64,000 nt of DNA from a virus (IMGVR_UViG_3300042891_001180); one strand, 5' to 3'. Shown: positions 4,838-60,634, counted from the stretch's first letter. The notes: generated by a model not told the origin, from the sequence alone. Translations and numbers: made by a program.

Positions 4838-5541
4838 CTTTGTGAGACAATAAACTCGGCTTCAGGTATTCGTACCTTACCATTCTTACTTCCAAGTACA
4901 ATAACGATACGGCGTCCAACATCCGTATCTACCATCATGACAATGCAGCCACCGGCTGCATTTGTAGTTCCAGTCTTACTAACAATAAAACTATGACGCT
5001 TGCCAACGATAGGGTTGGTGTTATTGAATGATTGAGATTGCTTACCACTTTTAATAGTAAGTACGGCAGTACGACTGGCTTGAGTTATTTCTGAATAATG
5101 ACTTGCCTCAAATACCAATCTAAGTAAGTCTAAGGCAGTACTGATATTCATTGGACTTAGCCCGGTTGGCTCTACAAACTTAGTCCTCAACATCCCCAGG
5201 TAAATTGCTTTTTCGTTCATGTAGCGAATACATTCAAAACGACCGCCTGGAAAATTATCACATAACACTTTAGCAGAATTATTATCTGATTTCACTAAAG
5301 CCAGTTGAATGTGTTGCTCTCTTGTATACTTACCAAGTTTCTGTTGCATGTTTTGATTACTATCAATAACAGCCATTACGGTCATTAACTTGGTAATACT
5401 TGCAATAGAACGAACTTCGGTAATATTGTACCCCTCAATCAAGTTACCCTGATCATCAGTCTCAAGCCAACTTTGTGCCGTTATATTAACCGCAAATGCA
5501 TTACTAGCAAATAGTAATACAGCGAGTATAATCGCTCTCAT
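4834..5541 (-). CDS. Peptidase S11 (D-Ala-D-Ala carboxy/endopeptidase, PBP7-like), secreted
   Basis: Signal peptide; SITK (SxxK), SDN and KTG catalytic motifs; EPTGL. Confidence 0.88.
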   Translation of the reverse strand: MRAIILAVLLFASNAFAVNITAQSWLETDDQGNLIEGYNITEVRSIASITKLMTVMAVIDSNQNMQQKLGKYTREQHIQLALVKSDNNSAKVLCDNFPGGRFECIRYMNEKAIYLGMLRTKFVEPTGLSPMNISTALDLLRLVFEASHYSEITQASRTAVLTIKSGKQSQSFNNTNPIVGKRHSFIVSKTGTTNAAGGCIVMMVDTDVGRRIVIVLGSKNGKVRIPEAEFIVSQS

Positions 5542-5584
5542 CAGTTATACCCCAGTATAATATTATGAGGTATAATAATAAAGG

Positions 5585-5656
5585 GTGCAGGGGAAGGAGT
5601 CGCACCTACGACCTCTGGATTATGAGTCCAGCGCTCTTCTACTGAGCTACCCTGCG
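5585..5656 (-). tRNA. tRNA-Met(CAT), atypical, possibly initiator-like
   Basis: CGCAGGG-TAGCTCAG...CTGGA-CT-CAT-AA-TCCAG...GTAGG-TGCGACT-CCTTC-CCCTGCA; C1:A72 mismatch; non-canonical T loop; no encoded CCA. Confidence 0.75.
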
Positions 5657-5664
5657 TTATCGGT

Positions 5665-6399
5665 CTACAAGTTCCAGGGAAAACCGCCGGGATAAACTTC
5701 CGCTTGTTTGCTGTTCCCGTCAATGAAGAATTCGGCTTGAACTGAGCCATCGTTACCCCCTAGCCTGTAGTTAAGTGTGTATTTACCAGAGCATGCATAA
5801 TTGTCATGCTTGATATGGTCTTTTAAAATAGTATAAAATCTTCTATCTCCGCCCCACCCGTAATCCCAGATGTGACATACTTGTCGATAGAAGGATGTCT
5901 TAAAACAATATGAACTTGTATCTATTAAATAGGCATCTTTATTTACCCATGCAGGCCACCTACCTAATGACTCACAGTTATCAACTGTAATATAATTTTT
6001 ATCTTTATCAAAAATCTGTCTGAGTGAATATGCCCAGTCGAGCTTCTTACTCTCAATAGTATTTATTAAGGAGTCTATATGATCAGTTTCGAACCAATTA
6101 TCTTGATCTAAGAAGAGAACATAATCGTGATTGATAAGATGGCCAAACCCAGCCATGATTCGGTGGCCGTAAAAGCCCCCGCCACCGGTGTTAAACGGTA
6201 AATCAATTCGTTTAACTTTTCCACCTGTAATGATTCTTGCATCGTTTAATACCTCGTCTACCTTAGATGAAAACTGAACACCGTCTACAACCAGAAGATG
6301 TTCAACCTCTTTATTCGTCTGATTTAATACTGAGTGTACAGCATCAGCTAATTCTGGTGACCCTATTGTAGGTGTAATAACTAAAATACTCAATCCCAC
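5665..6399 (-). CDS. Glycosyltransferase family 2
   Basis: VITPTIG, VVDG, FLDQDN, GGDRRF motifs. Confidence 0.8.
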   Translation of the reverse strand: MGLSILVITPTIGSPELADAVHSVLNQTNKEVEHLLVVDGVQFSSKVDEVLNDARIITGGKVKRIDLPFNTGGGGFYGHRIMAGFGHLINHDYVLFLDQDNWFETDHIDSLINTIESKKLDWAYSLRQIFDKDKNYITVDNCESLGRWPAWVNKDAYLIDTSSYCFKTSFYRQVCHIWDYGWGGDRRFYTILKDHIKHDNYACSGKYTLNYRLGGNDGSVQAEFFIDGNSKQAEVYPGGFPWNL

Positions 6400-10351: not shown

Positions 10352-10638
10352 CAGAATACCATCCTAATTAAACCGACTGTGTCGATTGTGGTGAGTAGTA
10401 TATAGTTGGCGAGCATTCCAAATGATTTCCTAGTGTAAGCAGCCCAAGCATACAAAGCGCAGCCAGCGATCCAAATAGGATACAAAACAAGAAGCGGTGG
10501 AGTAGGGACTGTAGCGGCCATAGTGATGCTACAACCAATACTAATGCCCCAAGCAAGCAACTCGATAAAAAAGCGTACAGGGTGAGAATTAAAATCATCT
10601 TTTATCCATTCAAATGTCGGTCTTAGTAGGTCGTTCAA
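10351..10638 (-). CDS. Small 3-TM membrane protein
   Basis: Three hydrophobic segments; overlaps neighbours. Confidence 0.7.
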   Translation of the reverse strand: MNDLLRPTFEWIKDDFNSHPVRFFIELLAWGISIGCSITMAATVPTPPLLVLYPIWIAGCALYAWAAYTRKSFGMLANYILLTTIDTVGLIRMVF

Positions 10639-11422
10639 TGCCTAGCTCCTTACGAATTTTTGTAGCAGAAATAGAATGAGTAGCCTCATCGAATACTTCT
10701 TGTTCAATTTTATATCCAACATCTCTGCCATATGTGATATTTACAATGTTAGGAACTACTTGAATCTCGTATTGACCTTGATATAGCATATCAAGATCTC
10801 GTTTAATATAATTTTTAACTTGATCAATAGCGAATGGATTAGACCCTTGCCATCCTTGACAATCTCTAATCTGAATAATCACCTGACCGGTCTTTGCAAT
10901 AGATCTTTCAAACAAAGCGCGGTGTCCGGCATGCCAAGGTTGCCAACGACCAAGCATTTGAACCGTTTCTTTTTTCCAATCAAATATCGGGCGACGACGA
11001 TTATCTAAAATGTGAGCAGCAATAAACTCTCCCCACCTCTCACCACTTTGTTCATTAATCCTAAAGTCATAAACATCTGGTGGTATGAATACTTTGTTTG
11101 TATCCTCAAAACGACCTTTATCGATTGTATCAACCCAGATAGTCCAATCAGCTTTAAAGTTATTACGCATCTCAACAAGAGGAGCAACAAAATCACAAAT
11201 TACAAAATCACAATCATAACTATCAGCCAACTCTCTCATTCGTAAGCTTTGACGAATACGACCTTCATGACTGAAGTCCCAATCATTATACTTCTTGCGT
11301 ACATCATCGGCATTAAGCCACATTACCGTTTTACGCTCATGCTCTAGATGTTCTAAAATGTGTTGTGCAAGATATGTCTTACCTGAGCCAGGTAGCCCCA
11401 TTACTAAAATACGCTGTGTCAT
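10610..11422 (-). CDS. cysC: Adenylyl-sulfate kinase-like domain fused to an HxGH nucleotidyltransferase domain
   Basis: GLPGSGKT, LNADDVR, DFSHEGRIRQ, DFVAP; C-terminal LGRWQPWHAGH and SISATKIR. Confidence 0.78.
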   Translation of the reverse strand: MTQRILVMGLPGSGKTYLAQHILEHLEHERKTVMWLNADDVRKKYNDWDFSHEGRIRQSLRMRELADSYDCDFVICDFVAPLVEMRNNFKADWTIWVDTIDKGRFEDTNKVFIPPDVYDFRINEQSGERWGEFIAAHILDNRRRPIFDWKKETVQMLGRWQPWHAGHRALFERSIAKTGQVIIQIRDCQGWQGSNPFAIDQVKNYIKRDLDMLYQGQYEIQVVPNIVNITYGRDVGYKIEQEVFDEATHSISATKIRKELGIERPTKTDI

Positions 11423-12231
11423 GTATACTGCTCCCAAAAAGACGGAAAATATTGCTGCTGATGCTGAATGGTATGTTTACCTATATATTTTTCATACGCA
11501 TACCTATTTGATTCAATTATAGGTCTCAGATCATGCTGGTTGATAAAGTGACCGCCTGCATGTTTATTATGAAAAATTAATTTAGATTGTGGAACATTTT
11601 TAAAATCATGATTAAAATATGGCAAATCTAAAAAATTATAAATTCGCCTCATCTGCTTATCAGGGTCATCACATAACTTATTATAATCTATAAAGAGTAA
11701 TCTATCACTATAACCTTGAACTACATTATCATAAAGATGATTATAGTTTGATCCTAATACCCCCTGAAACCGATTAAAGAATTCAGCGCGTGAACCGATC
11801 GTGCTACAACCGTTATCAATTTCATCAAAGTTACACTCTAAAGGGTTCTCTATTCGCATTTTTTCAAACGACGCAATAATTTCATGCGTTGATCGAACCG
11901 ATACTATCATTTTTATTTTTTTTTGAATTAAGCTTTCTAGTAGAGGAATACTTACCCGCGTCCAGTTGTGGTCATTACTAATTACCGCAGATTTATTGCA
12001 TCCCTTAAAGTAACCATACAGAAGACCCGCTAAGGCGTCACGCCTAGGAGCTAATTCTTTCATTTCATACTGACTGCTTATTGTATTTAACGCAAAACTA
12101 CGCCGTGCAGATGAAAGCGCGATAACGAGTGCATTAGAAGTATCACAGAAGAAATAATCATTCTGTTCTAGTATACTGGTTAGTAGTGTTGAGCCTGATC
12201 TAGGTAACCCACATCTAAAAAATATATCCAT
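11419..12231 (-). CDS. Sulfotransferase family protein
   Basis: GLPRSGSTLL 5'-PSB loop; VRSTHEIIAS 3'-PB motif; YNKLCDDP..MRRIYNFL. Confidence 0.82.
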   Translation of the reverse strand: MDIFFRCGLPRSGSTLLTSILEQNDYFFCDTSNALVIALSSARRSFALNTISSQYEMKELAPRRDALAGLLYGYFKGCNKSAVISNDHNWTRVSIPLLESLIQKKIKMIVSVRSTHEIIASFEKMRIENPLECNFDEIDNGCSTIGSRAEFFNRFQGVLGSNYNHLYDNVVQGYSDRLLFIDYNKLCDDPDKQMRRIYNFLDLPYFNHDFKNVPQSKLIFHNKHAGGHFINQHDLRPIIESNRYAYEKYIGKHTIQHQQQYFPSFWEQYT

Positions 12232-26898: not shown

Positions 26899-26934
26899 AT
26901 TATAACGCGGTTTTATGATAAAATCAACTGTTAC
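26899..26934 (-). promoter_or_regulatory. Sigma70-type promoter with upstream GTAAC element
   Basis: GTAAC-AG-TTGATT-N17-TATAAT. Confidence 0.7.
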
Positions 26935-27184
26935 TTTCAAAGATACGGGAAAATTTCTTTAATTTTTGACGTTTCTGGAAAATATTTTCAAATTTTTGAT
27001 CAATGGTACAATTTACTACCTGAAACTCGTACATAATTTCAATCATTGCCTGGAGATCACCAAGTTCCTTGACAAGAGCACTGTGATTTTCAGACATTCC
27101 AAATCTCTTTACCTTAGAAACAGCCTGAATCACCTCAGCACACTCCTCCTGGAGTATAGTCATAATCTCATCATTGCGGTTCAT
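26924..27184 (-). CDS. MazG-like nucleotide pyrophosphohydrolase
   Basis: LQEECAEVIQAVSK...ELGDL. Confidence 0.75.
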   Translation of the reverse strand: MNRNDEIMTILQEECAEVIQAVSKVKRFGMSENHSALVKELGDLQAMIEIMYEFQVVNCTIDQKFENIFQKRQKLKKFSRIFESNS

Positions 27185-42971: not shown

Positions 42972-43511
42972 TTATTCAAAATTCATTACAAATGAAAATC
43001 TAAAATTTGTAGTAGTTACAGGAATAGTGTTGCTTTTATGAGGAATAGATGAATCAAACAAAACAATCCGGCCAGGTTTAAATAAAGACGTATAAAGTAC
43101 TTCATCTATTAAGTCGTTAACAAATAAAGTTTCCCCCCCATCATTAATAGACCACTCAAGATTGGCATAATAAAGAAGTGTAAGACCTCCAGGATCACTA
43201 TGAAAATAATGTCTGGTTAAAAAATTAGAACTAAAAACATAACTTCGAGTAATTACTTTATTTTTAATATATTTTCTAAGTATATTAATAAGATAAGGAG
43301 AAAAAAATTTTGAATTTTTTAAATCTTCTTGAGAATAATTGCTTTGAATGTATTCTCTAAGGTTTGCATTAAGCTCCGGATTTGCTGTTCCGTTAAATCT
43401 AAACGGCCCTGAAGTAAAAAAAGAATAAAAATTAAGTCTTTCACTATAACTAAATACATCATCAAAAACTATAAGTTGTTTGCCATTAAGGGTTAATTCT
43501 TTTATAATCAT
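42972..43511 (-). CDS. 2OG-Fe(II) oxygenase
   Basis: FHSD, LYYAN.EW...GGET, PGRIVLFDSSIPH, RFS. Confidence 0.82.
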   Translation of the reverse strand: MIIKELTLNGKQLIVFDDVFSYSERLNFYSFFTSGPFRFNGTANPELNANLREYIQSNYSQEDLKNSKFFSPYLINILRKYIKNKVITRSYVFSSNFLTRHYFHSDPGGLTLLYYANLEWSINDGGETLFVNDLIDEVLYTSLFKPGRIVLFDSSIPHKSNTIPVTTTNFRFSFVMNFE

Positions 43512-43978: not shown

Positions 43979-44527
43979 ATGATTCACTTCTACTGTTACG
44001 ACGTAACAAAGACAATTCTAATTTCCGACCAGCCTGTTGACAAGGTGAGAATTAAGTATGGCCATCGTTACGAGTTACTTAACTCAATTAAAGATAATTC
44101 TGCTGTAGACGTAATAAGGACCAGACTGTTACGTAGTTACAGTAAGTATGAGTTTATTGAATGGTATCAATATGTTCGTAAGCCAATGTCAGAAGAGACT
44201 AGACGAAAGATGTCTGAGGCAAAGATGGGTAAGCCTAGAGACGAGGCCACAAGACAGAAGATATCAGCTGGCTTAAAAGGTAGATCCAACTTTCAGGGTA
44301 AGAAGCATAGCGCAGGTACCAAAGATGTAATGGCTGAGAAGAAGTTAGGAAACCAGCATACCAAAGACTCTTATTGGGCATACGATCCTAAGACAGATAA
44401 AGAGACAAGAGTTAGAGATAGAAACAACCTGCCCCCTGGATATACATTAGGAAGAGACTATGACTCTATTGAGGTTGGACTTTATCATATAGATGAACAC
44501 AGAAAATTAAGAGCGCGTAATAGCTAA
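43979..44527 (+). CDS. NUMOD3-repeat DNA-binding protein (homing-endonuclease-associated modules)
   Basis: MSEETRRKMSEAKMG, EATRQKIS, GKKHSAGTK..M; PPGY.LGR tail. Confidence 0.75.
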   Translation: MIHFYCYDVTKTILISDQPVDKVRIKYGHRYELLNSIKDNSAVDVIRTRLLRSYSKYEFIEWYQYVRKPMSEETRRKMSEAKMGKPRDEATRQKISAGLKGRSNFQGKKHSAGTKDVMAEKKLGNQHTKDSYWAYDPKTDKETRVRDRNNLPPGYTLGRDYDSIEVGLYHIDEHRKLRARNS

Positions 44528-45472: not shown

Positions 45473-46075
45473 TTAATATGCAAACATTGACATTGTAAAG
45501 CGTCCTGAGCACTCTATTGAAGAGTCAATCATTGTTATTTCTGAAACTTCATGAACATTGTGGCTAAGAAATACAACGCTCATATTATTTTGAACCGGTA
45601 TAGTTATATTATATTCTGAAAATTTAAAATCTCCTCCTGTAAAGTTTTTTGGTTCTTTAAAAAACCATGCGCATATGCTTAAATAAGCTCTGTCTGTATG
45701 AGCCTTATAATAATCTGCAGTTTCATAGTATGATATTAATGTAAAGTATTTTTTTGGTAAATAAATTGACGAGTAATCTGGGTGGAATTGAAAATACAAA
45801 TCCTTCATATCCTTAGTAAGAAATTTACGATTTAATCTTAAAATATCAGAAAAGTCTCTGTTTTTATATACATGATCAAGAAAGACCCCTTTATTTTGTT
45901 TTAAAAAAAACTCTTTTTCAGAATCGATACCTACAGCTCCTCCAGTCTCGTTTGGATAGAGTAATTTTGGATGAATAAATTCAAGTTCGCGATTTATAAT
46001 TTTTAGTTCATCAGGAGTAAATACTTCATTTATAACCATATATGGTATTGGTTCTTTTACATAAGTAATAATCAT
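45473..46075 (-). CDS. 2OG-Fe(II) oxygenase
   Basis: YKAHTD, FTGGDF, HEV, GRF. Confidence 0.8.
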   Translation of the reverse strand: MIITYVKEPIPYMVINEVFTPDELKIINRELEFIHPKLLYPNETGGAVGIDSEKEFFLKQNKGVFLDHVYKNRDFSDILRLNRKFLTKDMKDLYFQFHPDYSSIYLPKKYFTLISYYETADYYKAHTDRAYLSICAWFFKEPKNFTGGDFKFSEYNITIPVQNNMSVVFLSHNVHEVSEITMIDSSIECSGRFTMSMFAY

Positions 46076-47784: not shown

Positions 47785-48842
47785 ACTTCTTCATAGTTTT
47801 GCGCTTCAACATATAACGTCTTCATTAAGGTCTTGATGCGTGTCTTATCAGCCTCAGTATCTAAGCTATCAACATATTGTGATAGTAAGGTAACAGTATC
47901 TTCTAGATCTACTTCTTGATCACCCATTGCATCTGCTTCAAACTCAGATAGATCTTCAATAATTTTTAACTCTAAGGGGTTAACCTTATACAATCTCTCA
48001 ATAAACTGATCGTACTTATAGTAATCTTTTTTATTAACAACTATTAACTTAATGTGCTGGTTGGCATACTGACTTACATCAACAGTAGAAGGATCTACTT
48101 TCTCGTCGTCGTAGTAGACTTTAGAAAAGATCGAAAACGGGTTCTGAATAAAATCCAACGATCTCTCACTGGTGTCGAATATATGAAAGCCACGAGGGTC
48201 TTCGAAATCCGCCCAGGTAAGCTCATAAGGATTTCCAAGATAGTTAATGTTCCCATTACTACTACGGTGGTGAAAGTGGCCAGAACAAACCAGATCGAAC
48301 TTCTCAAATATCTTAGGATCAAATCCTTCATCGTTCTCGTGACCTTTATACATCTGAAAGCCAGCAATCTCAAAGTGCCCGAACAGTACCTGGGCATCGG
48401 TAGTCTTGATAGCTTCCATGCTTTGATTATAATTATCTGTACATATCCATGGCATCATGAATATCTTAGACCCATCATCGAATACTATCTCTGAAGGGGT
48501 ATCAATAACATTGAACTCATAGTCTTTAAGCAATAGACGAGGGGAGTTAACGTCATTGGTATTCTTAAAGAAGGTATCGTGATTACCTACAATCATATGT
48601 AGTTCGATATCCCTTTTTTTAATTTCGTCAAAAAAGTAACTACGACAAGAAGACAAGGTATTAAAATTGATATACTTACGGCGATCGAAACAATCACCAA
48701 GGTGTACAATATGTCGTATACCCCTTTTATCAATCTCAGGGAAGAAGACTTCCTCATAAAATTTCCTAAAGAAATTATCAAAGGGGATACTATCCGAGCG
48801 GGCACCGAAATGGGTATCGGTTACAAGCGCTATTTTAGTCAT
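47781..48842 (-). CDS. gp47: Recombination endonuclease subunit, Mre11/SbcD-like
   Basis: TDTHFG, GDCFDRRK, GNHD, GHFE, SGHFH. Confidence 0.95.
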   Translation of the reverse strand: MTKIALVTDTHFGARSDSIPFDNFFRKFYEEVFFPEIDKRGIRHIVHLGDCFDRRKYINFNTLSSCRSYFFDEIKKRDIELHMIVGNHDTFFKNTNDVNSPRLLLKDYEFNVIDTPSEIVFDDGSKIFMMPWICTDNYNQSMEAIKTTDAQVLFGHFEIAGFQMYKGHENDEGFDPKIFEKFDLVCSGHFHHRSSNGNINYLGNPYELTWADFEDPRGFHIFDTSERSLDFIQNPFSIFSKVYYDDEKVDPSTVDVSQYANQHIKLIVVNKKDYYKYDQFIERLYKVNPLELKIIEDLSEFEADAMGDQEVDLEDTVTLLSQYVDSLDTEADKTRIKTLMKTLYVEAQNYEEV

Positions 48843-49311
48843 TAAACTCGTTATCTTCCTTGTGTCCAACACGCATGGCCATATTGCTATCAGTCTCACG
48901 TACCTCTACCTTATAGCACCAGATACGATTTTGCTCTCCATAGCTTGGTAAAAAGATAGTATTTATATATTCATACAAAAAGTCTGCCAGACCTTCACAC
49001 CCAGTCTTTTCTACTTCTGTAATCTTAGCAATACCCTGCTTACCAAGTTCAAGTAGATATTCACGCTTAGGGTCGTCTTGTGCTACTAGCAAAGTATGAT
49101 CAAACCATTCTTCTAGTTTATCTTTTAATGGGCGCAGACCACCAAAGTCCATTACCCAATTGCGTGCATCCAATGTATCAGATTCGAACTCAAAGTGAAA
49201 TGATAAAGCATAACCATGGACTAAGTTACAGTGACTATCAGCTCTCCACTGACGGTACGCAACAGGTCCAATCTGCTTATACGTTTTAGTTGAAATATAT
49301 TTTTTTGCCAT
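48835..49311 (-). CDS. queD: 6-carboxytetrahydropterin synthase
   Basis: HCNLVHGY, WVMDFGG, FDHT, VRET..N.A. Confidence 0.88.
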   Translation of the reverse strand: MAKKYISTKTYKQIGPVAYRQWRADSHCNLVHGYALSFHFEFESDTLDARNWVMDFGGLRPLKDKLEEWFDHTLLVAQDDPKREYLLELGKQGIAKITEVEKTGCEGLADFLYEYINTIFLPSYGEQNRIWCYKVEVRETDSNMAMRVGHKEDNEFND

Positions 49312-49381: not shown

Positions 49382-50122
49382 TTACTCAAGTAGATTATCT
49401 TTTATTTCTTTAAGCATACGCTTCTTTATCTTACTCTGATTAAAGATTAAATATATCTCTTCAAAATATGTCTTAATAGGAAATTTTTTTGTTTCTCTTA
49501 CTGACACACAAGTTTCATACATATTTCTTAATGCAAGGGTGTAGTAAAATTTTTTAAATACTATTTTTTTATCTGTAAAAAACTCTATGTAATATAAGAT
49601 ATCATTTAACTTAATGTTTACTGTTCCTGGCTCTTTAATATACAGAGCAACATCTAATAGTCTTACCCATTGACCGATGTCAAAGGATCCTTCAATAATA
49701 CCTGTTTTTTTCGTAAAGTCATTATTTGTATAATTGGCATTCTTTTGTTTTATAAGTAAAGATGGTTCCTCTGTAAAAAGAAAATATTTACATAAATTAA
49801 AAGACATAAGTCCTGTATTAGCATCCCTTGCAACGATACATTTATCTGAAAACTCTTTATCATGATCAGGCGTATATATGTTATGACCGTCCCATTTAAT
49901 TTTTACTTCAGCTGGTGATGTAATTGTAAATGTATTATTTAAACTATTAAGTACAGCAGGACATTTTAGAAAATTATTTTTATCATTATCAGGGTGTACA
50001 AGTTTATGCCCCAATTGCCTTAACTCCTTAATTGCAGGTTCAGGTTCTTTGTGGGTCAAGTTAAATTTTGATTGTACAAAGCCTGGCGCCCAATATACAA
50101 TAATTTCTTCTTTATCTCTCAT
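49382..50122 (-). CDS. Hypothetical AT-rich protein interrupting the deazaguanine cluster
   Basis: VYWAP, KCPAV...NTFTI.SP, GSFDIGQWVR. Confidence 0.65.
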   Translation of the reverse strand: MRDKEEIIVYWAPGFVQSKFNLTHKEPEPAIKELRQLGHKLVHPDNDKNNFLKCPAVLNSLNNTFTITSPAEVKIKWDGHNIYTPDHDKEFSDKCIVARDANTGLMSFNLCKYFLFTEEPSLLIKQKNANYTNNDFTKKTGIIEGSFDIGQWVRLLDVALYIKEPGTVNIKLNDILYYIEFFTDKKIVFKKFYYTLALRNMYETCVSVRETKKFPIKTYFEEIYLIFNQSKIKKRMLKEIKDNLLE

Positions 50123-50649
50123 ACGTATTTTTTATCATGTTCTTTACCAATACCATAACTACCATCGTACATCTTTAATGCCTCAGCATCAAAGGACAAA
50201 TACTGCCCTACCCTCGTACCTTGCTTAATGCGCGCGACACCAGTCGTAACATGAAGTACCCCGGCCATGACACCGTGATAGCCAGAATCATAAAGACCTG
50301 AAGTAATAAAACAACCATTGCGGTTAAGAGTGCTACGAGTAATGACCCAACCAGCTTCCCCCTCGCCCACATGGATGACGTTTTCCATAACGATCTCATA
50401 ACTCCCCGGGTATAGCGTAAAATAACCTTCTCCGTCTGGATTGAGTTCCGTAGAACCTCTATGCTTTTTGTGATCATTGCTTACCTCAAACACTTCGTTA
50501 TTAATTTGAAATACCTTACCTAAACGTAGATCTACAGCATTAGGTTGAATATCTCCATCAACAACATTGGTAAGCTTAGTCCTACTACTTTCCCCCATCA
50601 CGTGCTTCATACTAAAGGGTTCTGAATATAATTTATATGTAACTGTCAT
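50119..50649 (-). CDS. dCTP deaminase/dUTPase family protein
   Basis: QPNAVDLRL, RSTLNRNG, YDSGYHG, RVGQ. Confidence 0.8.
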   Translation of the reverse strand: MTVTYKLYSEPFSMKHVMGESSRTKLTNVVDGDIQPNAVDLRLGKVFQINNEVFEVSNDHKKHRGSTELNPDGEGYFTLYPGSYEIVMENVIHVGEGEAGWVITRSTLNRNGCFITSGLYDSGYHGVMAGVLHVTTGVARIKQGTRVGQYLSFDAEALKMYDGSYGIGKEHDKKYV

Positions 50650-51263
50650 GCATTCTCCGGGATGTAATATGGATTCTCCATTGTCTGAAAATAAGCAATA
50701 GGAGATATTTGTTTGTACTTAAGATTAATTTTAAATACTCTATTAGGTGGTAACGACTCAGTAAACTCAACCTTGGTGGATGAGAAGTTTAAATCTTTAT
50801 CGTAGAACATTGGTGATATTTCATTCCTGAATACAAACAACTCACCACTATTATACATGATACAGGCAAAAGTGCCATCGACTCTGGATAATGCACTCCA
50901 GCCGTAGTTAAGAACTTGTTCTAGTAACCATTGAGTATCCCAGGTACCTTCTGATAAGTTCTTTTGCTTGATAATACCATTATGCCATAGCATACAGTCC
51001 CCGTATACTGCTGGGTGAATATTATTGGCATTGGTAGTTGGTGCCTGGCTATGAGCAATATAATACTTGTTATCTCCTTGAGCAAGACCCGTGATAAGAC
51101 CTTCAGGTATCCTATCTCTATCTTGCATCATTGTATCTAATCGTACCTTATGCTCATCAAACGAAAACGCGGAAAGGGAGTAACTTAACTCCCCCCTATA
51201 AGCATTCAATCGATATAAATCGGTCAGTTTATTCTGACTAAATGAACCAGTTATTGCGCACAT
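50646..51263 (-). CDS. Stand-alone class II (Ntn) glutamine amidotransferase
   Basis: N-terminal nucleophile Cys (M-CAITG), RG, HSQAPT, HP, HNGII, DT, DGTFA. Confidence 0.8.
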   Translation of the reverse strand: MCAITGSFSQNKLTDLYRLNAYRGELSYSLSAFSFDEHKVRLDTMMQDRDRIPEGLITGLAQGDNKYYIAHSQAPTTNANNIHPAVYGDCMLWHNGIIKQKNLSEGTWDTQWLLEQVLNYGWSALSRVDGTFACIMYNSGELFVFRNEISPMFYDKDLNFSSTKVEFTESLPPNRVFKINLKYKQISPIAYFQTMENPYYIPENA

Positions 51264-51264
51264 G

Positions 51265-52029
51265 TTACACCTTCATTTTTCCGATTAGGTCTTGCCAAGG
51301 GATTACTTTAGAATACTCTACAGGATCATTATAACCTATTTTAGCAAAATTGGCAATACGTTCCGAGCAACTAGGACACTCACCACATGAACGATGTTGT
51401 GCATCAGGGTTGTAACACGTCATAGTAAATGCCGTAAGCATAAAGTTACCATCTAGTTCTTGCAAGATCTGTAACTCATCGTACTTAGACAGTTGACTGA
51501 AAGGTGCAGTTAATTTAATCTTAATGATACGGTTTTCAGATAGCAGATCATTTACTTTATCTACCCAGCGTTGAGTAGTATCGTGGTAGCCATACTCATC
51601 ATGAACCTGTAGCCCACAAACAACAGTATCAACGTTCTGGGTCTCTGCAAAGGCGGCCGCAATAGACATCAAGATCATATTACGGTTAGGTACATAAGTC
51701 TTAGGACGAGGATCACCTAAAACGTCTTTAATGGTAGGCATAGCCATATCGGTATCAACATTAGCAGAAAAGCCTTTACTGATATCACCTAGGAAAGATG
51801 CATCAACTACTCTATGCTTAACACCTAGTAGGTTAGTAGACATTCTAGCCATCTCAATCTCACGCTTCTGCTTCTGACCGTAGTAGAAGGTTAGAGCCGA
51901 TACGTTTTCTTTGCCATACTTCTGTACAGCCAATCTCATAGCAATGGTACTATCCATACCGCCAGATAGAATAACTACACAGCCGTCTACATCAGGCAAT
52001 AATGCTAGCGCTTCACTTGAAGTCATCAT
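51265..52029 (-). CDS. queC: 7-cyano-7-deazaguanine synthase
   Basis: LSGGMDS, YGQK, TYVPNRN, TCY...CGECPSC..R. Confidence 0.94.
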   Translation of the reverse strand: MMTSSEALALLPDVDGCVVILSGGMDSTIAMRLAVQKYGKENVSALTFYYGQKQKREIEMARMSTNLLGVKHRVVDASFLGDISKGFSANVDTDMAMPTIKDVLGDPRPKTYVPNRNMILMSIAAAFAETQNVDTVVCGLQVHDEYGYHDTTQRWVDKVNDLLSENRIIKIKLTAPFSQLSKYDELQILQELDGNFMLTAFTMTCYNPDAQHRSCGECPSCSERIANFAKIGYNDPVEYSKVIPWQDLIGKMKV

Positions 52030-52231
52030 GTTTCTCTTTCAATTCTTTTTGAATACGGTGAATATAAACTACTGCATCCATCAGCTCTTCTTTCAGATGC
52101 TGAATCCATTGCATTAGATCTAGATCGGTACGCTCGGTAGTCACCCCGTACTTATCAAAGCCGTGACAGGCTCTTAACTCAAATTCATTACAAATTTCAT
52201 TTACGTTGGGATCAGGTCCAGTTATTTTCAT
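52013..52231 (-). CDS. Small MazG-like all-alpha NTP pyrophosphohydrolase
   Basis: G..KYGVT, W.QHLKEELMDAVVY (EExxD). Confidence 0.6.
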   Translation of the reverse strand: MKITGPDPNVNEICNEFELRACHGFDKYGVTTERTDLDLMQWIQHLKEELMDAVVYIHRIQKELKEKHDDFK

Positions 52232-53148
52232 TGTCTTGCTGTCTTTTCACAGAAGTTATAAGCATCAATAATAGGTGCTTGGTTTAAGAGATAGTAATTA
52301 GATGCGCGAGTAGGATTGATATCAATACCACCTCTACGAGTATACAAGCATGTGACCAATAACTCTTCAGGGTCTAACAAGTCATATAAGCGCTTGTAAA
52401 TGCATTCGGCAATCTCTTCATGGAAATGATTCTCTTTGCGCATTGATACAATGTACTGCAGTAATGATTCAGGGGTAACAGCCTTCTCGCCTTTAATATG
52501 AATATAAACATCACCCCAGTCTGGCTGGTTAGTTACTCGGCAATTTGAACGCAACGAATGTGAACGCCATCTTTCATAACGACCAATAGAAGGGACAACT
52601 TCAAGAATATCAGATGATTCATTATATTGATCAAATGACATCTTAGCAACATTACAGTATTCTTCAAGCGCCATAAAGTCACCTTTCAAAGGCTTGAGAG
52701 TATCTACATCACCAACTGCAATATAAACACCAACGTCTCCGCCTACAGCCTTGGAGAGATCTTTTTCAATTTGTTCTTCAATATAATGAAGATCTTCTTT
52801 ACCTTCAATTAAGCGAGCCATATTATAAGAGTTCAAATATAACTTAACCGATTTAGACTCAACAATATTAGGAGTACTGGATGAGTAAGTAAACTTTAAC
52901 CAACCGGAGATAGGAAAGCCATTCTTCTGTAAGGTAGAGAACTCATAAGCATTCCAGGCATCCATACCTACAAAAGGTAATTCTTCTTCTTGAATATCGT
53001 ATGCTGTACGATTCAAATAACGAGGTACAGAAACCAAGAGACTTGGATCAACTTCATCTGGCGTTACATAGGGGTTAACAGCTGACCCATCACCTGCCTT
53101 ACCTAAATGGACCCCAATCAGCTTATTCAGTTCGTCTTGATTACTCAT
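52228..53148 (-). CDS. queF: NADPH-dependent preQ0 reductase, bimodular type
   Basis: DAWNAYE, ESKSVKLYLNS QueF motif, catalytic C in SNCRVTNQPD, FHE, YTRRGGIDINP. Confidence 0.93.
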   Translation of the reverse strand: MSNQDELNKLIGVHLGKAGDGSAVNPYVTPDEVDPSLLVSVPRYLNRTAYDIQEEELPFVGMDAWNAYEFSTLQKNGFPISGWLKFTYSSSTPNIVESKSVKLYLNSYNMARLIEGKEDLHYIEEQIEKDLSKAVGGDVGVYIAVGDVDTLKPLKGDFMALEEYCNVAKMSFDQYNESSDILEVVPSIGRYERWRSHSLRSNCRVTNQPDWGDVYIHIKGEKAVTPESLLQYIVSMRKENHFHEEIAECIYKRLYDLLDPEELLVTCLYTRRGGIDINPTRASNYYLLNQAPIIDAYNFCEKTARQ

Positions 53149-53681
53149 TATCTTCCTTCTAAATGATCTAAAATTGTATTAACTCTATTACGCACAGAGC
53201 CTTTAACTCTAAGCATACTTAAATTTTCTTTTTCAATAACATATTCAAATAATTCTGCAATCTCATCTCTAAATTGCTTATTGATACTGCGTACACCATC
53301 ATCCACAATCTCAAACTCAGGCTCAATATAGAAGACATAATCATACGAATGCCATACTTTATTAAATACTTCTCTAACATATTTCAAAGTATTTGCACTA
53401 ATTTGATTTTTATTATACAAGTACGCACTATAAACTAAACCGTCTAGTGCAGTACGATCTGTTAACATATTACCGTACATGAACACATTAACAATATGCT
53501 CATTCATAATAAGACGTTGAGTTATATCGGTACCTTCTTCATTAATAGGTAAGCCATAACTCTTTACGCGACGAGTTACCTCATCACATACAACATAGTC
53601 TTTAAATAGTTTTTCCGAGCGCAACGCATTCAATAAAGTAGTCTTACCTACCGACTGCGCACCCGTTATACCAATCTTCAT
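53148..53681 (-). CDS. P-loop nucleotide kinase (NadR/AAA_28-like)
   Basis: ITGAQSVGKTT, DRTALD..VY, DDGVR. Confidence 0.8.
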   Translation of the reverse strand: MKIGITGAQSVGKTTLLNALRSEKLFKDYVVCDEVTRRVKSYGLPINEEGTDITQRLIMNEHIVNVFMYGNMLTDRTALDGLVYSAYLYNKNQISANTLKYVREVFNKVWHSYDYVFYIEPEFEIVDDGVRSINKQFRDEIAELFEYVIEKENLSMLRVKGSVRNRVNTILDHLEGR

Positions 53682-54220
53682 AATCCCTTTTCCCTTAAGA
53701 AGAAATTCCATGCCGATAACGAAGTCATCTTAAGTGAAGCATATAGATCTTCTCTAGTATAATTTCTATTACGTACATAGACAGATTTCAGTACATCACC
53801 ACCATCTAGTTCAGCTGTGCATTTATGTACAACACTGCCTATTATATTATACTTGTCGTTATCTTGCCATACTTTTTCTTGCGGATCTTTTCCTTTTAAC
53901 TCAGGGAAGAGAGTAATTGCTCCAGGATGGCCGTTATATACTTCGTATTTTTCACATATATCAGCTGGTAGAATGCGAAGGTAACCATGAAGACTAATAA
54001 GGGTCTGAGGAACATTATATACCACCTGATTTCTAAAGTAGTTCATTATCATATCATGCTTAGCAGACATAATAGTAACACCCAGCTCACGAATGCCTGG
54101 GTGAAATTTAATTTTATCTTCGAAGTTATTAGTTACCAATAAGTCTGGCTTACGCTTGATAGACTTAGATAACTCTACAATCTCAGAGCCTGTCTGACTA
54201 AAGAATGCAACCCACAACAT
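53678..54220 (-). CDS. PurN-fold formyltransferase, probably DpdN-like preQ1 formyltransferase
   Basis: FSQTGSE, LHGYLRIL, NGHPG, G.VVH...ELDGG; embedded among Que genes. Confidence 0.78.
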   Translation of the reverse strand: MLWVAFFSQTGSEIVELSKSIKRKPDLLVTNNFEDKIKFHPGIRELGVTIMSAKHDMIMNYFRNQVVYNVPQTLISLHGYLRILPADICEKYEVYNGHPGAITLFPELKGKDPQEKVWQDNDKYNIIGSVVHKCTAELDGGDVLKSVYVRNRNYTREDLYASLKMTSLSAWNFFLREKGL

Positions 54221-55020
54221 TACCTGTATCCGTGAACAAAAGAACGGAAGTACAAAATGTTATGCTTGATGGTATGCATAGTGGCTACCGAGGGCTCAGG
54301 AGTGTTAAGTAGCTCAATGAGCTTGATGGATTTCTTAGCATCCAGACCACCAGGCTCGTAACCAAGGCCCAGCAAAGCGTGAACAATAGGGTTGGAAGTA
54401 TCCAATGACTCCAACCATTCGAAACCTTGACGATAGAACATAAATTCAATCGGTAACGCGCACCCAAGGAGGTGATGCGGCTTTTTAGTATTGATAACAT
54501 CATCTTGTAATAATCTAGTTAAAGTTTGTACCCTACCTAATGCATAACCCACCCACTTGTTAGGATGAGGACAAACCTCGAGGTAGTACGAGTAGTCAAA
54601 GGAAATTGCAATCTTATCTACACCAATTACATTATCAAGATAATCATAGCATTGAACTATGTCTTCATAACTCTTACCCTGAACAACACCAATTTTCTTA
54701 CCAGGTATATCGGAATACTTTTCTTTCCAATCTAAAGCATTATCCATTGTACCGAGTGTATCTTCGAGTACATCAGGAATAATATATTCAGTAGGTTGTA
54801 GTTCTTTAATCCAATGGGCATACCGATCAGAATCAAATGCCGTACCTAATTCAAAGATAGAATTATCTAGCAAGACGGTTCGACCCTGAGCTAGAGAATC
54901 TTTAAAGAATTGGTAATAGGTTGGTTCGGTTTCGAACAAGTGGACAAGAGCGTAATCGTAATCGTTATAACTACGAGACCGATCAAGAAGGCAAAGCGGG
55001 GATTCATGACTAATTTTCAT
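54220..55020 (-). CDS. TGT/DpdA-like TIM-barrel protein (DpdA3-like candidate)
   Basis: LLDNSIFELG, IPDV, GVVQG, HHLLG, SLDTS in the order of TGT-family motifs; cluster context. Confidence 0.65.
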   Translation of the reverse strand: MKISHESPLCLLDRSRSYNDYDYALVHLFETEPTYYQFFKDSLAQGRTVLLDNSIFELGTAFDSDRYAHWIKELQPTEYIIPDVLEDTLGTMDNALDWKEKYSDIPGKKIGVVQGKSYEDIVQCYDYLDNVIGVDKIAISFDYSYYLEVCPHPNKWVGYALGRVQTLTRLLQDDVINTKKPHHLLGCALPIEFMFYRQGFEWLESLDTSNPIVHALLGLGYEPGGLDAKKSIKLIELLNTPEPSVATMHTIKHNILYFRSFVHGYR

Positions 55021-55454
55021 TGTAGTTTCTCAATAATATTCGATGTTACAGGGACCCAAATTACAGTATCATCGTACTTAGTTTTCTTTGCTCGATGTTT
55101 ATTTTCATTAACATAAGCTATCATATCTGTTATATTATAACGGTAAATAGATTTTGTATCCACATCTACCCCGTAAATTTGTTCCGCCATTGTAGTATAT
55201 AACCACCCTGCGCGATTTTTTCTTTTATTAACCAACTCCACACAAAGGGTACCCTTATAGTAGTTAGATTTAACATCAACAGCAACCCCGTTAATAATAC
55301 AATCAATCTTTAATACTACTTGACTGTTAATATCGTTCTTATCTTCAAATAAAATATTATTAGTCTTGCAATATTCTTCTACAATTGCTTCACCAAGGTC
55401 GCCCTTGGCACCATTAGCACCATAGCGACCTTCGGAGTTTGCATACCATGTCAT
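55017..55454 (-). CDS. PD-(D/E)XK nuclease-like protein
   Basis: G.LGE helix, ID, DVK, VE, GW. Confidence 0.55.
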   Translation of the reverse strand: MTWYANSEGRYGANGAKGDLGEAIVEEYCKTNNILFEDKNDINSQVVLKIDCIINGVAVDVKSNYYKGTLCVELVNKRKNRAGWLYTTMAEQIYGVDVDTKSIYRYNITDMIAYVNENKHRAKKTKYDDTVIWVPVTSNIIEKLQ

Positions 55455-55457
55455 ATA

Positions 55458-56135
55458 TTACTTCTTAATAAGAGACATGAACTCAGCGCGGCAATCGGGC
55501 TCACTCTTAAAGCAACCACCAAGCTTGGCTGTAAGCGTAGAGGAGGAATGATCTTCAACACCTCGACTCTTAACACAGTAATGGGTACCTTCAATGACCA
55601 CAGCAACATCTTCAGTACCAAGAATGAAGACCAATGCATGGTATACCTGCTCAGCAATACGTTCTTGGACTTGAGGACGACGCGAAAAGTATTCTACAAT
55701 ACGATTTAACTTAGATAGACCAAGTACTTTACCTTTAGGAATATAACCAATATGTGCTTTACCATCGATGGTAACAAAGTGGTGCTCGCAGTTAGACATC
55801 ATAGTGATGTCCTTCTCTACTACCATCTCATCATACCCCATCTTATTATCAATAACAGTACACTTAGGAAAGTTCTCTGGTTTCAGGCCCCAGAAAATCT
55901 CACGTACAAACATCTTAGCTACTCTCTTAGGAGTATCCATCAACGAGTCATCGGTCAAGTCAAGACCCAACGTCTCCATAATGACAGCAAAGTTCTTTTC
56001 GATCTTTGCAATCTTACGCTCATCCTTAACCCCAAGTCTATCCAAGACAATAGGTGTATGAACACCTTTAGAGATAAGATATTCTTCTACTTTATAGCCG
56101 AGTTCGGCATCTGTTTTTCCAGCTTGTAATGACAT
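55458..56135 (-). CDS. folE: GTP cyclohydrolase I
   Basis: DTPKRVAKM, CEHHF, GLSKLNR, RPQVQER, HYCVKSRGV. Confidence 0.96.
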   Translation of the reverse strand: MSLQAGKTDAELGYKVEEYLISKGVHTPIVLDRLGVKDERKIAKIEKNFAVIMETLGLDLTDDSLMDTPKRVAKMFVREIFWGLKPENFPKCTVIDNKMGYDEMVVEKDITMMSNCEHHFVTIDGKAHIGYIPKGKVLGLSKLNRIVEYFSRRPQVQERIAEQVYHALVFILGTEDVAVVIEGTHYCVKSRGVEDHSSSTLTAKLGGCFKSEPDCRAEFMSLIKK

Positions 56136-56136
56136 T

Positions 56137-56994
56137 TTAGGTTCCCCATTCATTTTTAAATAAAGGCACTTGAAGGCGATCGCTGTATCGATACCCCTTC
56201 TTCATGGCAAGTTCTGCCACAGCCCGGTTGTTCATATGATATACCGACTCGACACCACCAACAGGCATCAAGTATACCGGTCCTCTAAAGCCAGCTGCAC
56301 GATATGCTTCTACTGCCTTCTCTGCCTCATCTGCATCTTCCTGAGATGCAACTACAAACTTCAAGTACACATAACCCACCATACCATAGTCGGCTACGAT
56401 TTCTGGCTTGATAGCTTCATCCCACTTCTCACCTGATACCGATAACTTAGGAGATACAGAGAACGTTATCTGACGATCAAGGTTACCAGGATGACCCCAC
56501 CCCCATCTTTCAAGATAGTCTTTAAACTCTTTGGAAAGGTCTTGTGTGCCATTGGTCTCAAAGGTAATCTCCTTTAATGATCTCATCTTCGGGTGCTCAA
56601 GCAAGTCAGGGTACGCTCTCTGCCATCCCAGTAAAGGCTCCCCACCTGTAATTACTAGATGCTCTTCTTTCCATTCTTTGTACGGTAGAGAATCCACAAC
56701 AGCTTCGGCAACCGAATTAGTATCAAGAACGGGAGATAGGTGCTTAAAACGAGGATCCCAGCTAGCGTATGAATCACAGCCTGTACTGACAAGCGGTAAT
56801 TCTTTATATGAAAGATACTTCTTAACCTCTGCCGCCACATAGTCAACCTCTTTACTTTGTTCACCTTTAGGCATACCAAAGCCACTGCAGGTAAAGTTAC
56901 AACCAAAGGTGCGAAGGAATACAGAAGGTACACCCATGTACCGACCTTCACCTTGGATGGAGTAGAATAGCTCTGCTACTTTAAGTTTAGCCAT
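56137..56994 (-). CDS. queE: 7-carboxy-7-deazaguanine synthase (radical SAM)
   Basis: FYSIQGEG, FLRTFGCNFTC...CDS, ITGGEP, ETNGT, SVSPKL. Confidence 0.94.
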   Translation of the reverse strand: MAKLKVAELFYSIQGEGRYMGVPSVFLRTFGCNFTCSGFGMPKGEQSKEVDYVAAEVKKYLSYKELPLVSTGCDSYASWDPRFKHLSPVLDTNSVAEAVVDSLPYKEWKEEHLVITGGEPLLGWQRAYPDLLEHPKMRSLKEITFETNGTQDLSKEFKDYLERWGWGHPGNLDRQITFSVSPKLSVSGEKWDEAIKPEIVADYGMVGYVYLKFVVASQEDADEAEKAVEAYRAAGFRGPVYLMPVGGVESVYHMNNRAVAELAMKKGYRYSDRLQVPLFKNEWGT

Positions 56995-59986: not shown

Positions 59987-60634
59987 TTATTCTTGTGGAG
60001 TTAAATTACCAGCAAGTGATATTCTATAATCGTCGCTTGTATAAAATGGAGTTACACTATGTTGCAACCACGAAGGAAATATAATCATTTTTCCTTCCCA
60101 GCTGTTATCAAGCTGAATATCATAATTTATAATATTGGAAGTAAAGGGTTGCGGGGTGGGGTAATGAAATGAAAATACTGGGCCGTTAAAACGACTACTA
60201 TTTTTATTACTAGGCAAATCTGCTTCATCCTCTAAGTTATAAGGTATTTTTATCCAACCTGTAAAGCTTAAAGCACCAAAATGCTCATGAGCTGGGTTAT
60301 ATTCATATTTTTTTTGAAAATTTATCCATAAATTAAGGGTACCATCACGAGTTTTTGCTATGTTATATTTTCTTCCTGCTTCATAAAAATTATATTGAGC
60401 TTTCCAATATTCAGGTACTATTACTTCAAAAAATTTATTGAATTCTGCTACTGGTGTAGTAAATTTATATTCATGCTCTATTGCGCCTGCTAGACCATAC
60501 TTAAACGTTTTTTGACCTTTAAAATCTGAATCAATAATTTTAATAGATTGGAATTTAACATAATCTAAAATAGATTTTGGAATATCACAAATAAAATAGC
60601 CTAAAGAAACTAGTGGTATATATTCTGATGGCAT
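59987..60634 (-). CDS. 2OG-Fe(II) oxygenase-like protein
   Basis: WINFQKKYEYNPAHEH, FPSWLQHSVTPF, RISLAGN. Confidence 0.8.
   Translation of the reverse strand: MPSEYIPLVSLGYFICDIPKSILDYVKFQSIKIIDSDFKGQKTFKYGLAGAIEHEYKFTTPVAEFNKFFEVIVPEYWKAQYNFYEAGRKYNIAKTRDGTLNLWINFQKKYEYNPAHEHFGALSFTGWIKIPYNLEDEADLPSNKNSSRFNGPVFSFHYPTPQPFTSNIINYDIQLDNSWEGKMIIFPSWLQHSVTPFYTSDDYRISLAGNLTPQE

Follow-up and report, generated by a model that had tools for sequence, protein, structure and literature searches.

A kinase and a predicted pyrophosphatase beside DpdA3 in an uncultured T4-like phage suggest that guanine may be replaced before the DNA is copied

In this study, we report the analysis of a 7-deazaguanine gene cluster in a viral stretch of 64,000 nucleotides, IMGVR_UViG_3300042891_001180, in which the gene for the guanine transglycosylase DpdA3 stands together with a P-loop kinase and with candidates for an enzyme that cleaves deoxynucleoside triphosphates (dNTPs). 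The whole of this stretch is called the window, and coordinates in it refer to the minus strand unless otherwise indicated. The kinase and the dNTP-cleaving enzyme beside DpdA3 suggest a swap of bases on free nucleotides before DNA copying, and we slightly favour an operon, of the DpdA3/DpdN type, that works on the nucleotide pool ahead of replication. The analysis establishes which genes are present, their folds, the conservation of catalytic residues, the synteny and the gene fusions; every substrate, with the action of DpdA3 at the nucleotide level and the dGTP specificity of the hydrolase, is inferred. The source phage is T4-like, as the window codes for UvsW, UvsY, gp46/47 and homologues of gp44 and gp45. 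It is an uncultured phage known from metagenomes only, and a megablast search of the 49-56 kb region against phages gave no match and no near-identical isolate. The cluster itself is a T4-like addition to the published DpdA3/DpdN systems.

DpdA3 is encoded at 54220..55020, two genes upstream of the kinase. The protein is 52% identical to the annotated DpdA of Flavobacterium phage immuto (E 7e-102), 43% to CP220 gp056 and 26% to phiST CGPG_00065, the last two being DpdA3 proteins of Cui, Hutinet et al. (PMC10516641). The gene that follows, at 53678..54220, is assigned to DpdN, a PurN-like formyltransferase; it contains a PurN-type Formyl_trans_N domain (PF00551, 1.7e-7), is encoded alongside DpdA and the FolE-to-QueF genes, and shares 42% identity and the same gene position with the DpdN of immuto. 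Because DpdA3, DpdN and QueF are arranged as in immuto, the operon is identified, by sequence, as a 7-deazaguanine system of the DpdA3/DpdN (fdPreQ1) type. The DNA of immuto is fully substituted with fdPreQ1 (PMC10516641). A first-pass annotation of this DNA had proposed that dG is replaced before replication instead of by post-replicative base exchange. It overlooked the gene at 54220-55020 and, since this is a clear DpdA3, a transglycosylase with the tRNA-guanine transglycosylase (TGT) fold, a base-exchange enzyme is present and the words "instead of base exchange" have to be dropped. The other half of that proposal, in which the flagged enzymes form a nucleotide-level arm, is supported comparatively by the constant kinase partner and by non-orthologous replacements of kinase and hydrolase.

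The AlphaFold2 model of DpdA3 (pLDDT 94.5) shows the (beta/alpha)8 fold of TGT, with Foldseek matches to tRNA-guanine transglycosylases at E 2e-8. VIA Z scores were 17-18 across ArcTGT, TGT and DpdA 7ui4: 18.2 for ArcTGT 1iq8, with a root-mean-square deviation (rmsd) of 2.9 over 233 residues, and 17.1 for the DNA preQ0 insertase DpdA 7ui4 (rmsd 3.3 over 232 residues). It must be noted that the fold search was needed to recognize this homology, as a DpdA3 profile run against PDB sequences gave just a non-significant match to DpdA (E 0.72). Asp52, Asp83 and Asp207 were invariant in 8 divergent and 44 related sequences and, by analogy with Asp95, Asp130 and Asp256 of DpdA, would act in acid/base catalysis, base recognition and as the nucleophile. 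DpdA3 consists of the catalytic barrel only, 232 of its 266 residues aligning to the 413-residue DpdA chain, and it is acidic, with a net charge of −12. The bacterial DpdA of the DpdA/DpdB preQ0 insertion system has the same fold and the same three Asp, but it comprises 436 residues, its insertions giving a positive crescent for DNA binding, and it depends on the ParB-like ATPase DpdB (PMC10164549), whereas DpdA3 is partnered with a protein of nucleotide-kinase fold.

The fold and the three catalytic Asp that DpdA3 shares with tRNA- and DNA-acting enzymes speak for the published route, in which it would act on finished DNA and put preQ1 or formyl-preQ1 in the place of G. Such post-replicative exchange is the sole published model for 7-deazaguanines and, for DpdA3, a proposal of the authors who defined this protein, Cui et al. 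(PMC10516641). We consider it less likely than replacement in the nucleotide pool, given that DpdA3 is devoid of the insertions which build the DNA-binding surface of DpdA, and that the DNA-level DpdA1 and DpdA2 systems reach at most about 30% substitution, as against 100% in phages with DpdA3 (PMC10516641).

The P-loop kinase reported in the first pass at 53148..53681 was confirmed, both by Pfam (AAA_28, 1e-16) and by a fold match to deoxynucleoside and thymidylate kinases. It consists of 177 aa counted from Met11 of an open reading frame (ORF) that reaches 53711. Its AlphaFold2 model has a pLDDT of 96, and the top PDB matches were the deoxyadenosine kinases of M. mycoides and Giardia (for deoxyadenosine kinase 2jat, Foldseek 2e-7, TM 0.71-0.73), human deoxycytidine kinase, thymidylate kinases and the ribosylnicotinamide kinase (RNK) domain of NadR. 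Among 92 representatives, whose identity to the query is 35-61%, full or nearly full conservation was seen for the P-loop (Gly7, Gly12, Lys13), Gln55, Asp75-Arg76, Asp80 and Arg131. The P-loop, the DR(Y/H)-type motif, the LID arginine, the base-binding Gln and the fold typical of deoxynucleoside kinases (dNK), thymidylate kinases (TMPK) and NadR-RNK are thus all found. According to sequence and model, these residues and this fold are the signature of a small-molecule kinase for deoxynucleosides or deoxynucleoside monophosphates (dNMPs). Its predicted action on a modified dG nucleoside or nucleotide follows from the context of the gene and from its fusions, which join the kinase to DpdN, QueF, dUTPase and GNAT; the AAA_28::dUTPase fusion directly follows a DpdA3 in one locus (L109). 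In addition, a family search with PF21448 revealed no T4 gp1-type deoxynucleoside monophosphate kinase (DNMK) in immuto, in CP220 or in G001, a complete relative of 163 kb used for the whole-genome comparisons, and the cluster kinase may be the sole phage-encoded deoxynucleotide kinase of these three genomes.

The automatic JGI name of this protein is nicotinamide riboside kinase, and an enzyme of this kind would raise the NAD(P)H available to QueF and have no part in the supply of DNA precursors. In favour of this name, the RNK domain of NadR belongs to AAA_28, the fold search places NadR structures near the top (TM 0.73-0.76) and a kinase-QueF fusion exists. On the other hand, CP220 and L109 have the kinase together with DpdA3 and no QueF in the stretches examined; fusions of the kinase to dUTPase and to DpdN are known; and in other lineages its place is taken by dNMP kinases. 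In attention to this, we regard the automatic name as very improbable. A separate observation concerns the fusion of the AAA_28 kinase to a GNAT acetyltransferase, which lies directly upstream of QueF at L110:6001-6999 and was also seen in P0273, P0364 and P0330. The L110 phage has a PolIII-alpha polymerase, and the same cluster carries a phosphoribosyltransferase (PRTase) and a dUTPase; the fusion may denote an acetyl-preQ1 variant replacing formyl-preQ1.

The IMG/VR comparison comprised 31 closely related loci and some 50 that are more distant, in which the core module runs from DpdA3 through DpdN (usually) and the kinase to QueF. As the same arrangement recurs in dozens of these relatives, it is not due to chance. 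The kinase was found within 1.3 kb of DpdA3 and on the same strand in 70 of the 70 loci with at least 1.8 kb of downstream sequence, although these loci are mutually related and the count overstates the number of independent observations. Two loci without DpdN have the kinase overlapping DpdA3. A small P-loop ORF was nearby in 73 of 75 DpdA3 loci vs. none of the DpdA2 loci, a small control set (n = 5). As for the phyletic pattern, G001, CP220 and immuto have the kinase as well as DpdA3, and Fletchervirus NCTC12673, pf16 and VH7D have neither.

The kinase beside DpdA3 is not of the same family in all phages. In immuto an AAA_28 kinase occupies this slot, and in CP220 one follows DpdA3 at a distance of about 40 bp. 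An AAA_18 kinase stands beside DpdA3 in phiST and Chryseobacterium phage MA9V-3, and Vibrio phage D479 and Aeromonas phage Ahp1 have a DNMK of the T4 gp1 type there. Rhizobium phage RHph_I1_18 encodes a 422-aa protein (L122:4723-5991) in which the DpdA3 barrel (residues 24-300) is followed by a C-terminal DUF3310, a domain known from the nucleotide kinase gp1.7 of T7; the gene after it is DCD-like (dCTP deaminase, DCD). Both gp1 and gp1.7 accept dGMP. A nucleoside triphosphate (NTP) hydrolase, whether PRA-PH, MazG, HD, DCD-like or dUTPase, was found in every lineage checked except Bacillus BSTP12. Such repeated recruitment of non-orthologous kinases and hydrolases by DpdA3 is hard to square with an action on finished DNA, while it is natural under the logic of T4 gp56, gp42 and gp1. 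As a further observation on CP220, a fusion of HD phosphohydrolase to an AAA_33 kinase lies just upstream of its DpdA3, and a second AAA_28 paralogue is present elsewhere in its genome (L003:6868-7899 and CP220 5419-5931).

If the exchange took place in finished DNA, the kinase and the pyrophosphatases would be ordinary nucleotide genes, a DpdB-like ATPase helper or enzymes that lower dGTP, an explanation that we likewise find less likely. Many nucleotide genes are mixed into T4-like operons, and bacterial DpdA does require its ATPase (PMC10164549), both of which would agree with it. However, the neighbour of DpdA3 is a small-molecule kinase of the dNK/TMPK type, neither ParB-like nor a DNA-dependent ATPase, and its replacement elsewhere by T4 gp1-type dNMP kinases or by a T7 gp1.7-type domain would be unexpected for an ATPase helper.

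The first candidate for the NTP hydrolase is the protein encoded at 50119..50649, for which the dUTPase/DCD fold already noticed in the first pass was borne out (PF22769, 1.3e-14; best PDB match the archaeal-type dUTPase 9w59, 3.3e-8). Its RS(S/T) motif, Arg105, Ser106, catalytic Asp121 and Gln149 are invariant, placing it in the trimeric dUTPase/DCD-like superfamily. Given that it retains the residues of dUTPase type but not the Glu of deaminases, it is predicted to be an NTP pyrophosphatase and no deaminase. The possibility of a dCTP deaminase was discarded, the position of the Glu in M. tuberculosis DCD being occupied by Val or Leu (family consensus MAGVLHV). A specificity for dGTP is pure conjecture on our part. 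DCD-like homologues are rare in isolates, with only four records, three of which directly follow DpdA3 and the kinase (Vibrio phage D479, Aeromonas phage Ahp1 and Rhizobium phage RHph_I1_18); a DCD-like gene also stands just upstream of the kinase-DpdA3 pair of Chryseobacterium phage MA9V-3. No match was found when this protein and the 72-aa protein described below were searched against the genomes of immuto, pf16, CP220 and phiST.

The 72-aa protein encoded at 52013..52231 had been described as a MazG-like EExxD protein. The EExxD motif is indeed invariant, but the upstream ExxE is not conserved and the assignment to MazG did not hold, as neither the sequence nor a 12-member family profile had a match in Pfam or the PDB. 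Comparison of the family by hhalign gave a probability of 0.2% with the PRA-PH family and no similarity with DUF3310, and matches in the ESM Atlas were to unnamed viral clusters only. It aligns, on the other hand, with 50-62% identity (E 1e-26) to roughly the first 70 aa of phage proteins of about 195 aa whose C-terminal half is MazG or PRA-PH, the shared module lying outside the MazG domain. From its homology to these fused proteins we consider it a stand-alone MazG/PRA-PH-associated N-terminal module. One of the fusions adjoins ThyX and ribonucleotide reductase (RNR) in a phage for which the 14.6 kb examined contain no que genes. A genuine MazG-domain NTP pyrophosphohydrolase of 86 aa is encoded at 26924..27184, 25 kb away from the cluster (PF03819, 3.4e-5; 24.4 bits vs. 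a cut-off of 22), with 51% identity to the MazG ORF of G001.

In the pathway that we favour, an NTP pyrophosphatase would convert dGTP to dGMP, removing the competitor and supplying the substrate at the same time; the DCD-fold enzyme is a candidate for this step, as is, possibly, the 72-aa module in combination with the distant MazG. DpdA3, as a bare TGT barrel, would then exchange the guanine of dGMP or dG for a 7-deazaguanine base, DpdN would formylate the aminomethyl group at the base or the nucleotide level, and the AAA_28 kinase would phosphorylate the modified deoxynucleoside or deoxynucleotide. Completion of the dNTP would fall to the NDP kinase of the host, and its incorporation to the phage polymerase. 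The bare acidic barrel and the 100% substitution fit this pathway. The same can be said of the failure of DpdA3 expressed in E. coli without these partner genes (PMC10516641), of the ADG nucleoside reported in CP220-infected cells (Crippen et al., 2019, as cited in PMC10516641) and of the use of 7-substituted 7-deaza-dGTPs as polymerase substrates (reference 1 of PMC10516641). We give an even chance to the more specific proposal that DpdA3 is no DNA modifier but a nucleotide-level transglycosylase which, together with the kinase and a dGTP-directed pyrophosphatase, explains the complete replacement of G.

Several points weigh against replacement in the nucleotide pool. To our knowledge, all characterized TGT and DpdA enzymes act on polynucleotides, and all known enzymes of the trimeric dUTPase/DCD fold act on pyrimidine nucleotides, so that a role as dGTPase would be new; the DCD-fold enzyme may be no more than a dUTPase. 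For the 72-aa protein, no match to a catalytic domain was obtained in Pfam or the PDB, and its fused relatives occur also in phages without que genes in the stretch examined. The acidic charge of DpdA3 discriminates poorly, DpdA2-like proteins being acidic too. The relatedness of the IMG/VR loci and the preference of those who defined DpdA3 for insertion after replication (PMC10516641) belong here as well.

The modified nucleotide could also arise by ribonucleotide salvage, with a PRTase loading 7-deazaguanine onto phosphoribosyl pyrophosphate, the kinase and RNR making the dNTP, and DpdA3 repairing residual G. Immuto-type clusters, L110 and some T4-like relatives have a short PRTase-like gene in common, but a PRTase profile found no homologue anywhere in the 64-kb window and none was seen in the stretches examined of CP220 (by annotation), phiST, D479 and Ahp1. 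DpdA3 and the kinase are, by contrast, universal, and the PRTase could equally salvage the released guanine, in view of which salvage appears improbable to us.

With respect to known systems, immuto has the same core order of DpdA3, DpdN, AAA_28 kinase and QueF, at 52, 42, 38, and 45% identity to the present proteins, respectively, and FolE, QueD, QueE and QueC are also common to both. They differ in that immuto is an Immutovirus with PolA while the present phage is T4-like (UvsW, UvsY, gp44-47), and in that the present cluster has no PRA-PH/PRTase and contains instead the DCD-fold pyrophosphatase, the 72-aa MazG-associated module and a stand-alone glutamine amidotransferase (GAT)-like gene. 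In CP220 (dADG) and phiST (dDG), both with 100% replacement, DpdA3 is flanked as here by P-loop kinases and an NTP hydrolase, namely HD::AAA_33 and AAA_28 in CP220 and AAA_18 and MazG in phiST; their final bases are nevertheless ADG and DG, they have neither QueF nor DpdN, and the phiST kinase is not orthologous. The logic proposed here is that of hydroxymethylcytosine (hmC) in T4 (gp56 dCTPase, gp42 dCMP hydroxymethylase, gp1 dNMP kinase) and of Z in S-2L (DatZ/MazZ/PurZ), in which the canonical dNTP is cleaved to the monophosphate, modified at this level and re-phosphorylated. A DNMK of the gp1 type or an HD hydrolase is found in some of the DpdA3 clusters. Unlike in T4 and S-2L, the modifier would be a TGT-fold transglycosylase swapping the whole base. 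We know of no precedent for such a whole-base swap by a TGT-fold enzyme in nucleotide-pool pathways.

Full replacement of a canonical base shields phage DNA from most restriction enzymes and from some CRISPR nucleases. In our literature searches, no published pre-replicative route to 7-deazaguanine DNA, no link to a kinase and no further work on DpdA3 were found. The word "kinase" is absent from PMC10516641, where phiST CGPG_00066 is said to lack homologues in other such phages; in our analysis CGPG_00066 is a P-loop kinase. The gene neighbourhood names a kinase and an NTP hydrolase as the likely missing partners of DpdA3, and offers an alternative that can be tested directly. If it were true, the TGT fold would gain a new class of substrate, and enzymes would become available for making 7-substituted 7-deaza-dGTPs, useful in the synthesis of modified DNA.

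The cluster is part of an unbroken run of minus-strand genes from about 57.0 to about 48.8 kb, with ends that overlap or abut, in the order QueE, FolE, 145-aa protein, DpdA3, DpdN, AAA_28 kinase, QueF, 72-aa ORF, QueC, GAT-like, DCD-fold, 246-aa protein and QueD. The three ORFs that the first-pass annotation had described as coupled to queF and queC lie where it placed them, on the minus strand and chained by overlaps: base 53148 is common to the stop of the kinase and the start of QueF, QueF shares 4 bp with the 72-aa ORF, which in turn shares 17 bp with QueC, and the overlap of the GAT-like and DCD-like genes is 4 bp. A scan for promoters and terminators gave nothing above chance.

The remaining genes of the run start with a QueE-like radical SAM enzyme (7-carboxy-7-deazaguanine synthase; 56137..56994), assigned from weak Radical_SAM/Fer4_12 Pfam matches and from the syntenic QueE of relatives and pf16. 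FolE, GTP cyclohydrolase I, follows at 55458..56153 (PF01227, 2.9e-60). The conserved 145-aa protein at 55017..55454, with no function assigned and no match in Pfam and PHROG searches, is directly upstream of DpdA3 and is conserved there across the T4-like clade. QueF, a bimodular preQ0 reductase (52228..53148; PF14819, 6.6e-31 and PF14489, 3.2e-20), has its nearest relatives in Pseudomonas phage pf16, Vibrio phages and immuto. QueC (51265..52029; PF06508, 5.2e-52) is paired with the stand-alone GAT-like protein (50646..51263; weak GATase_6/7 matches, phrog_12378 1.8e-44), a gene pair also present in pf16 and VH7D. QueD, of the PTPS fold, is encoded at 48835..49311 (PF01242, 7.7e-16). Between the DCD-fold gene and QueD lies the ORF of the 246-aa protein (49382..50122), with no function assigned and phrog_17480 as its sole match. 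This ORF is variable, being absent in most relatives and located between QueE and FolE in L012 and L029, and is possibly a mobile insert.

Outside the run, the sole plus-strand gene within the minus-strand block (43979-44527) encodes a NUMOD3-motif protein, probably a homing endonuclease. Three ORFs resembling 2-oxoglutarate-Fe(II) oxygenases are found around the cluster at 42972-43511, 45473-46075 and 59987-60634, all on the minus strand. Additionally, a second P-loop kinase of 275 aa is encoded at 10610-11437 (minus strand), near the genes for gp44 and the gp45 clamp; its N-terminus is APS_kinase/KTI12-like, its C-terminal half weakly resembles cytidylyltransferases, and it matches phrog_10255, annotated as "kinase".

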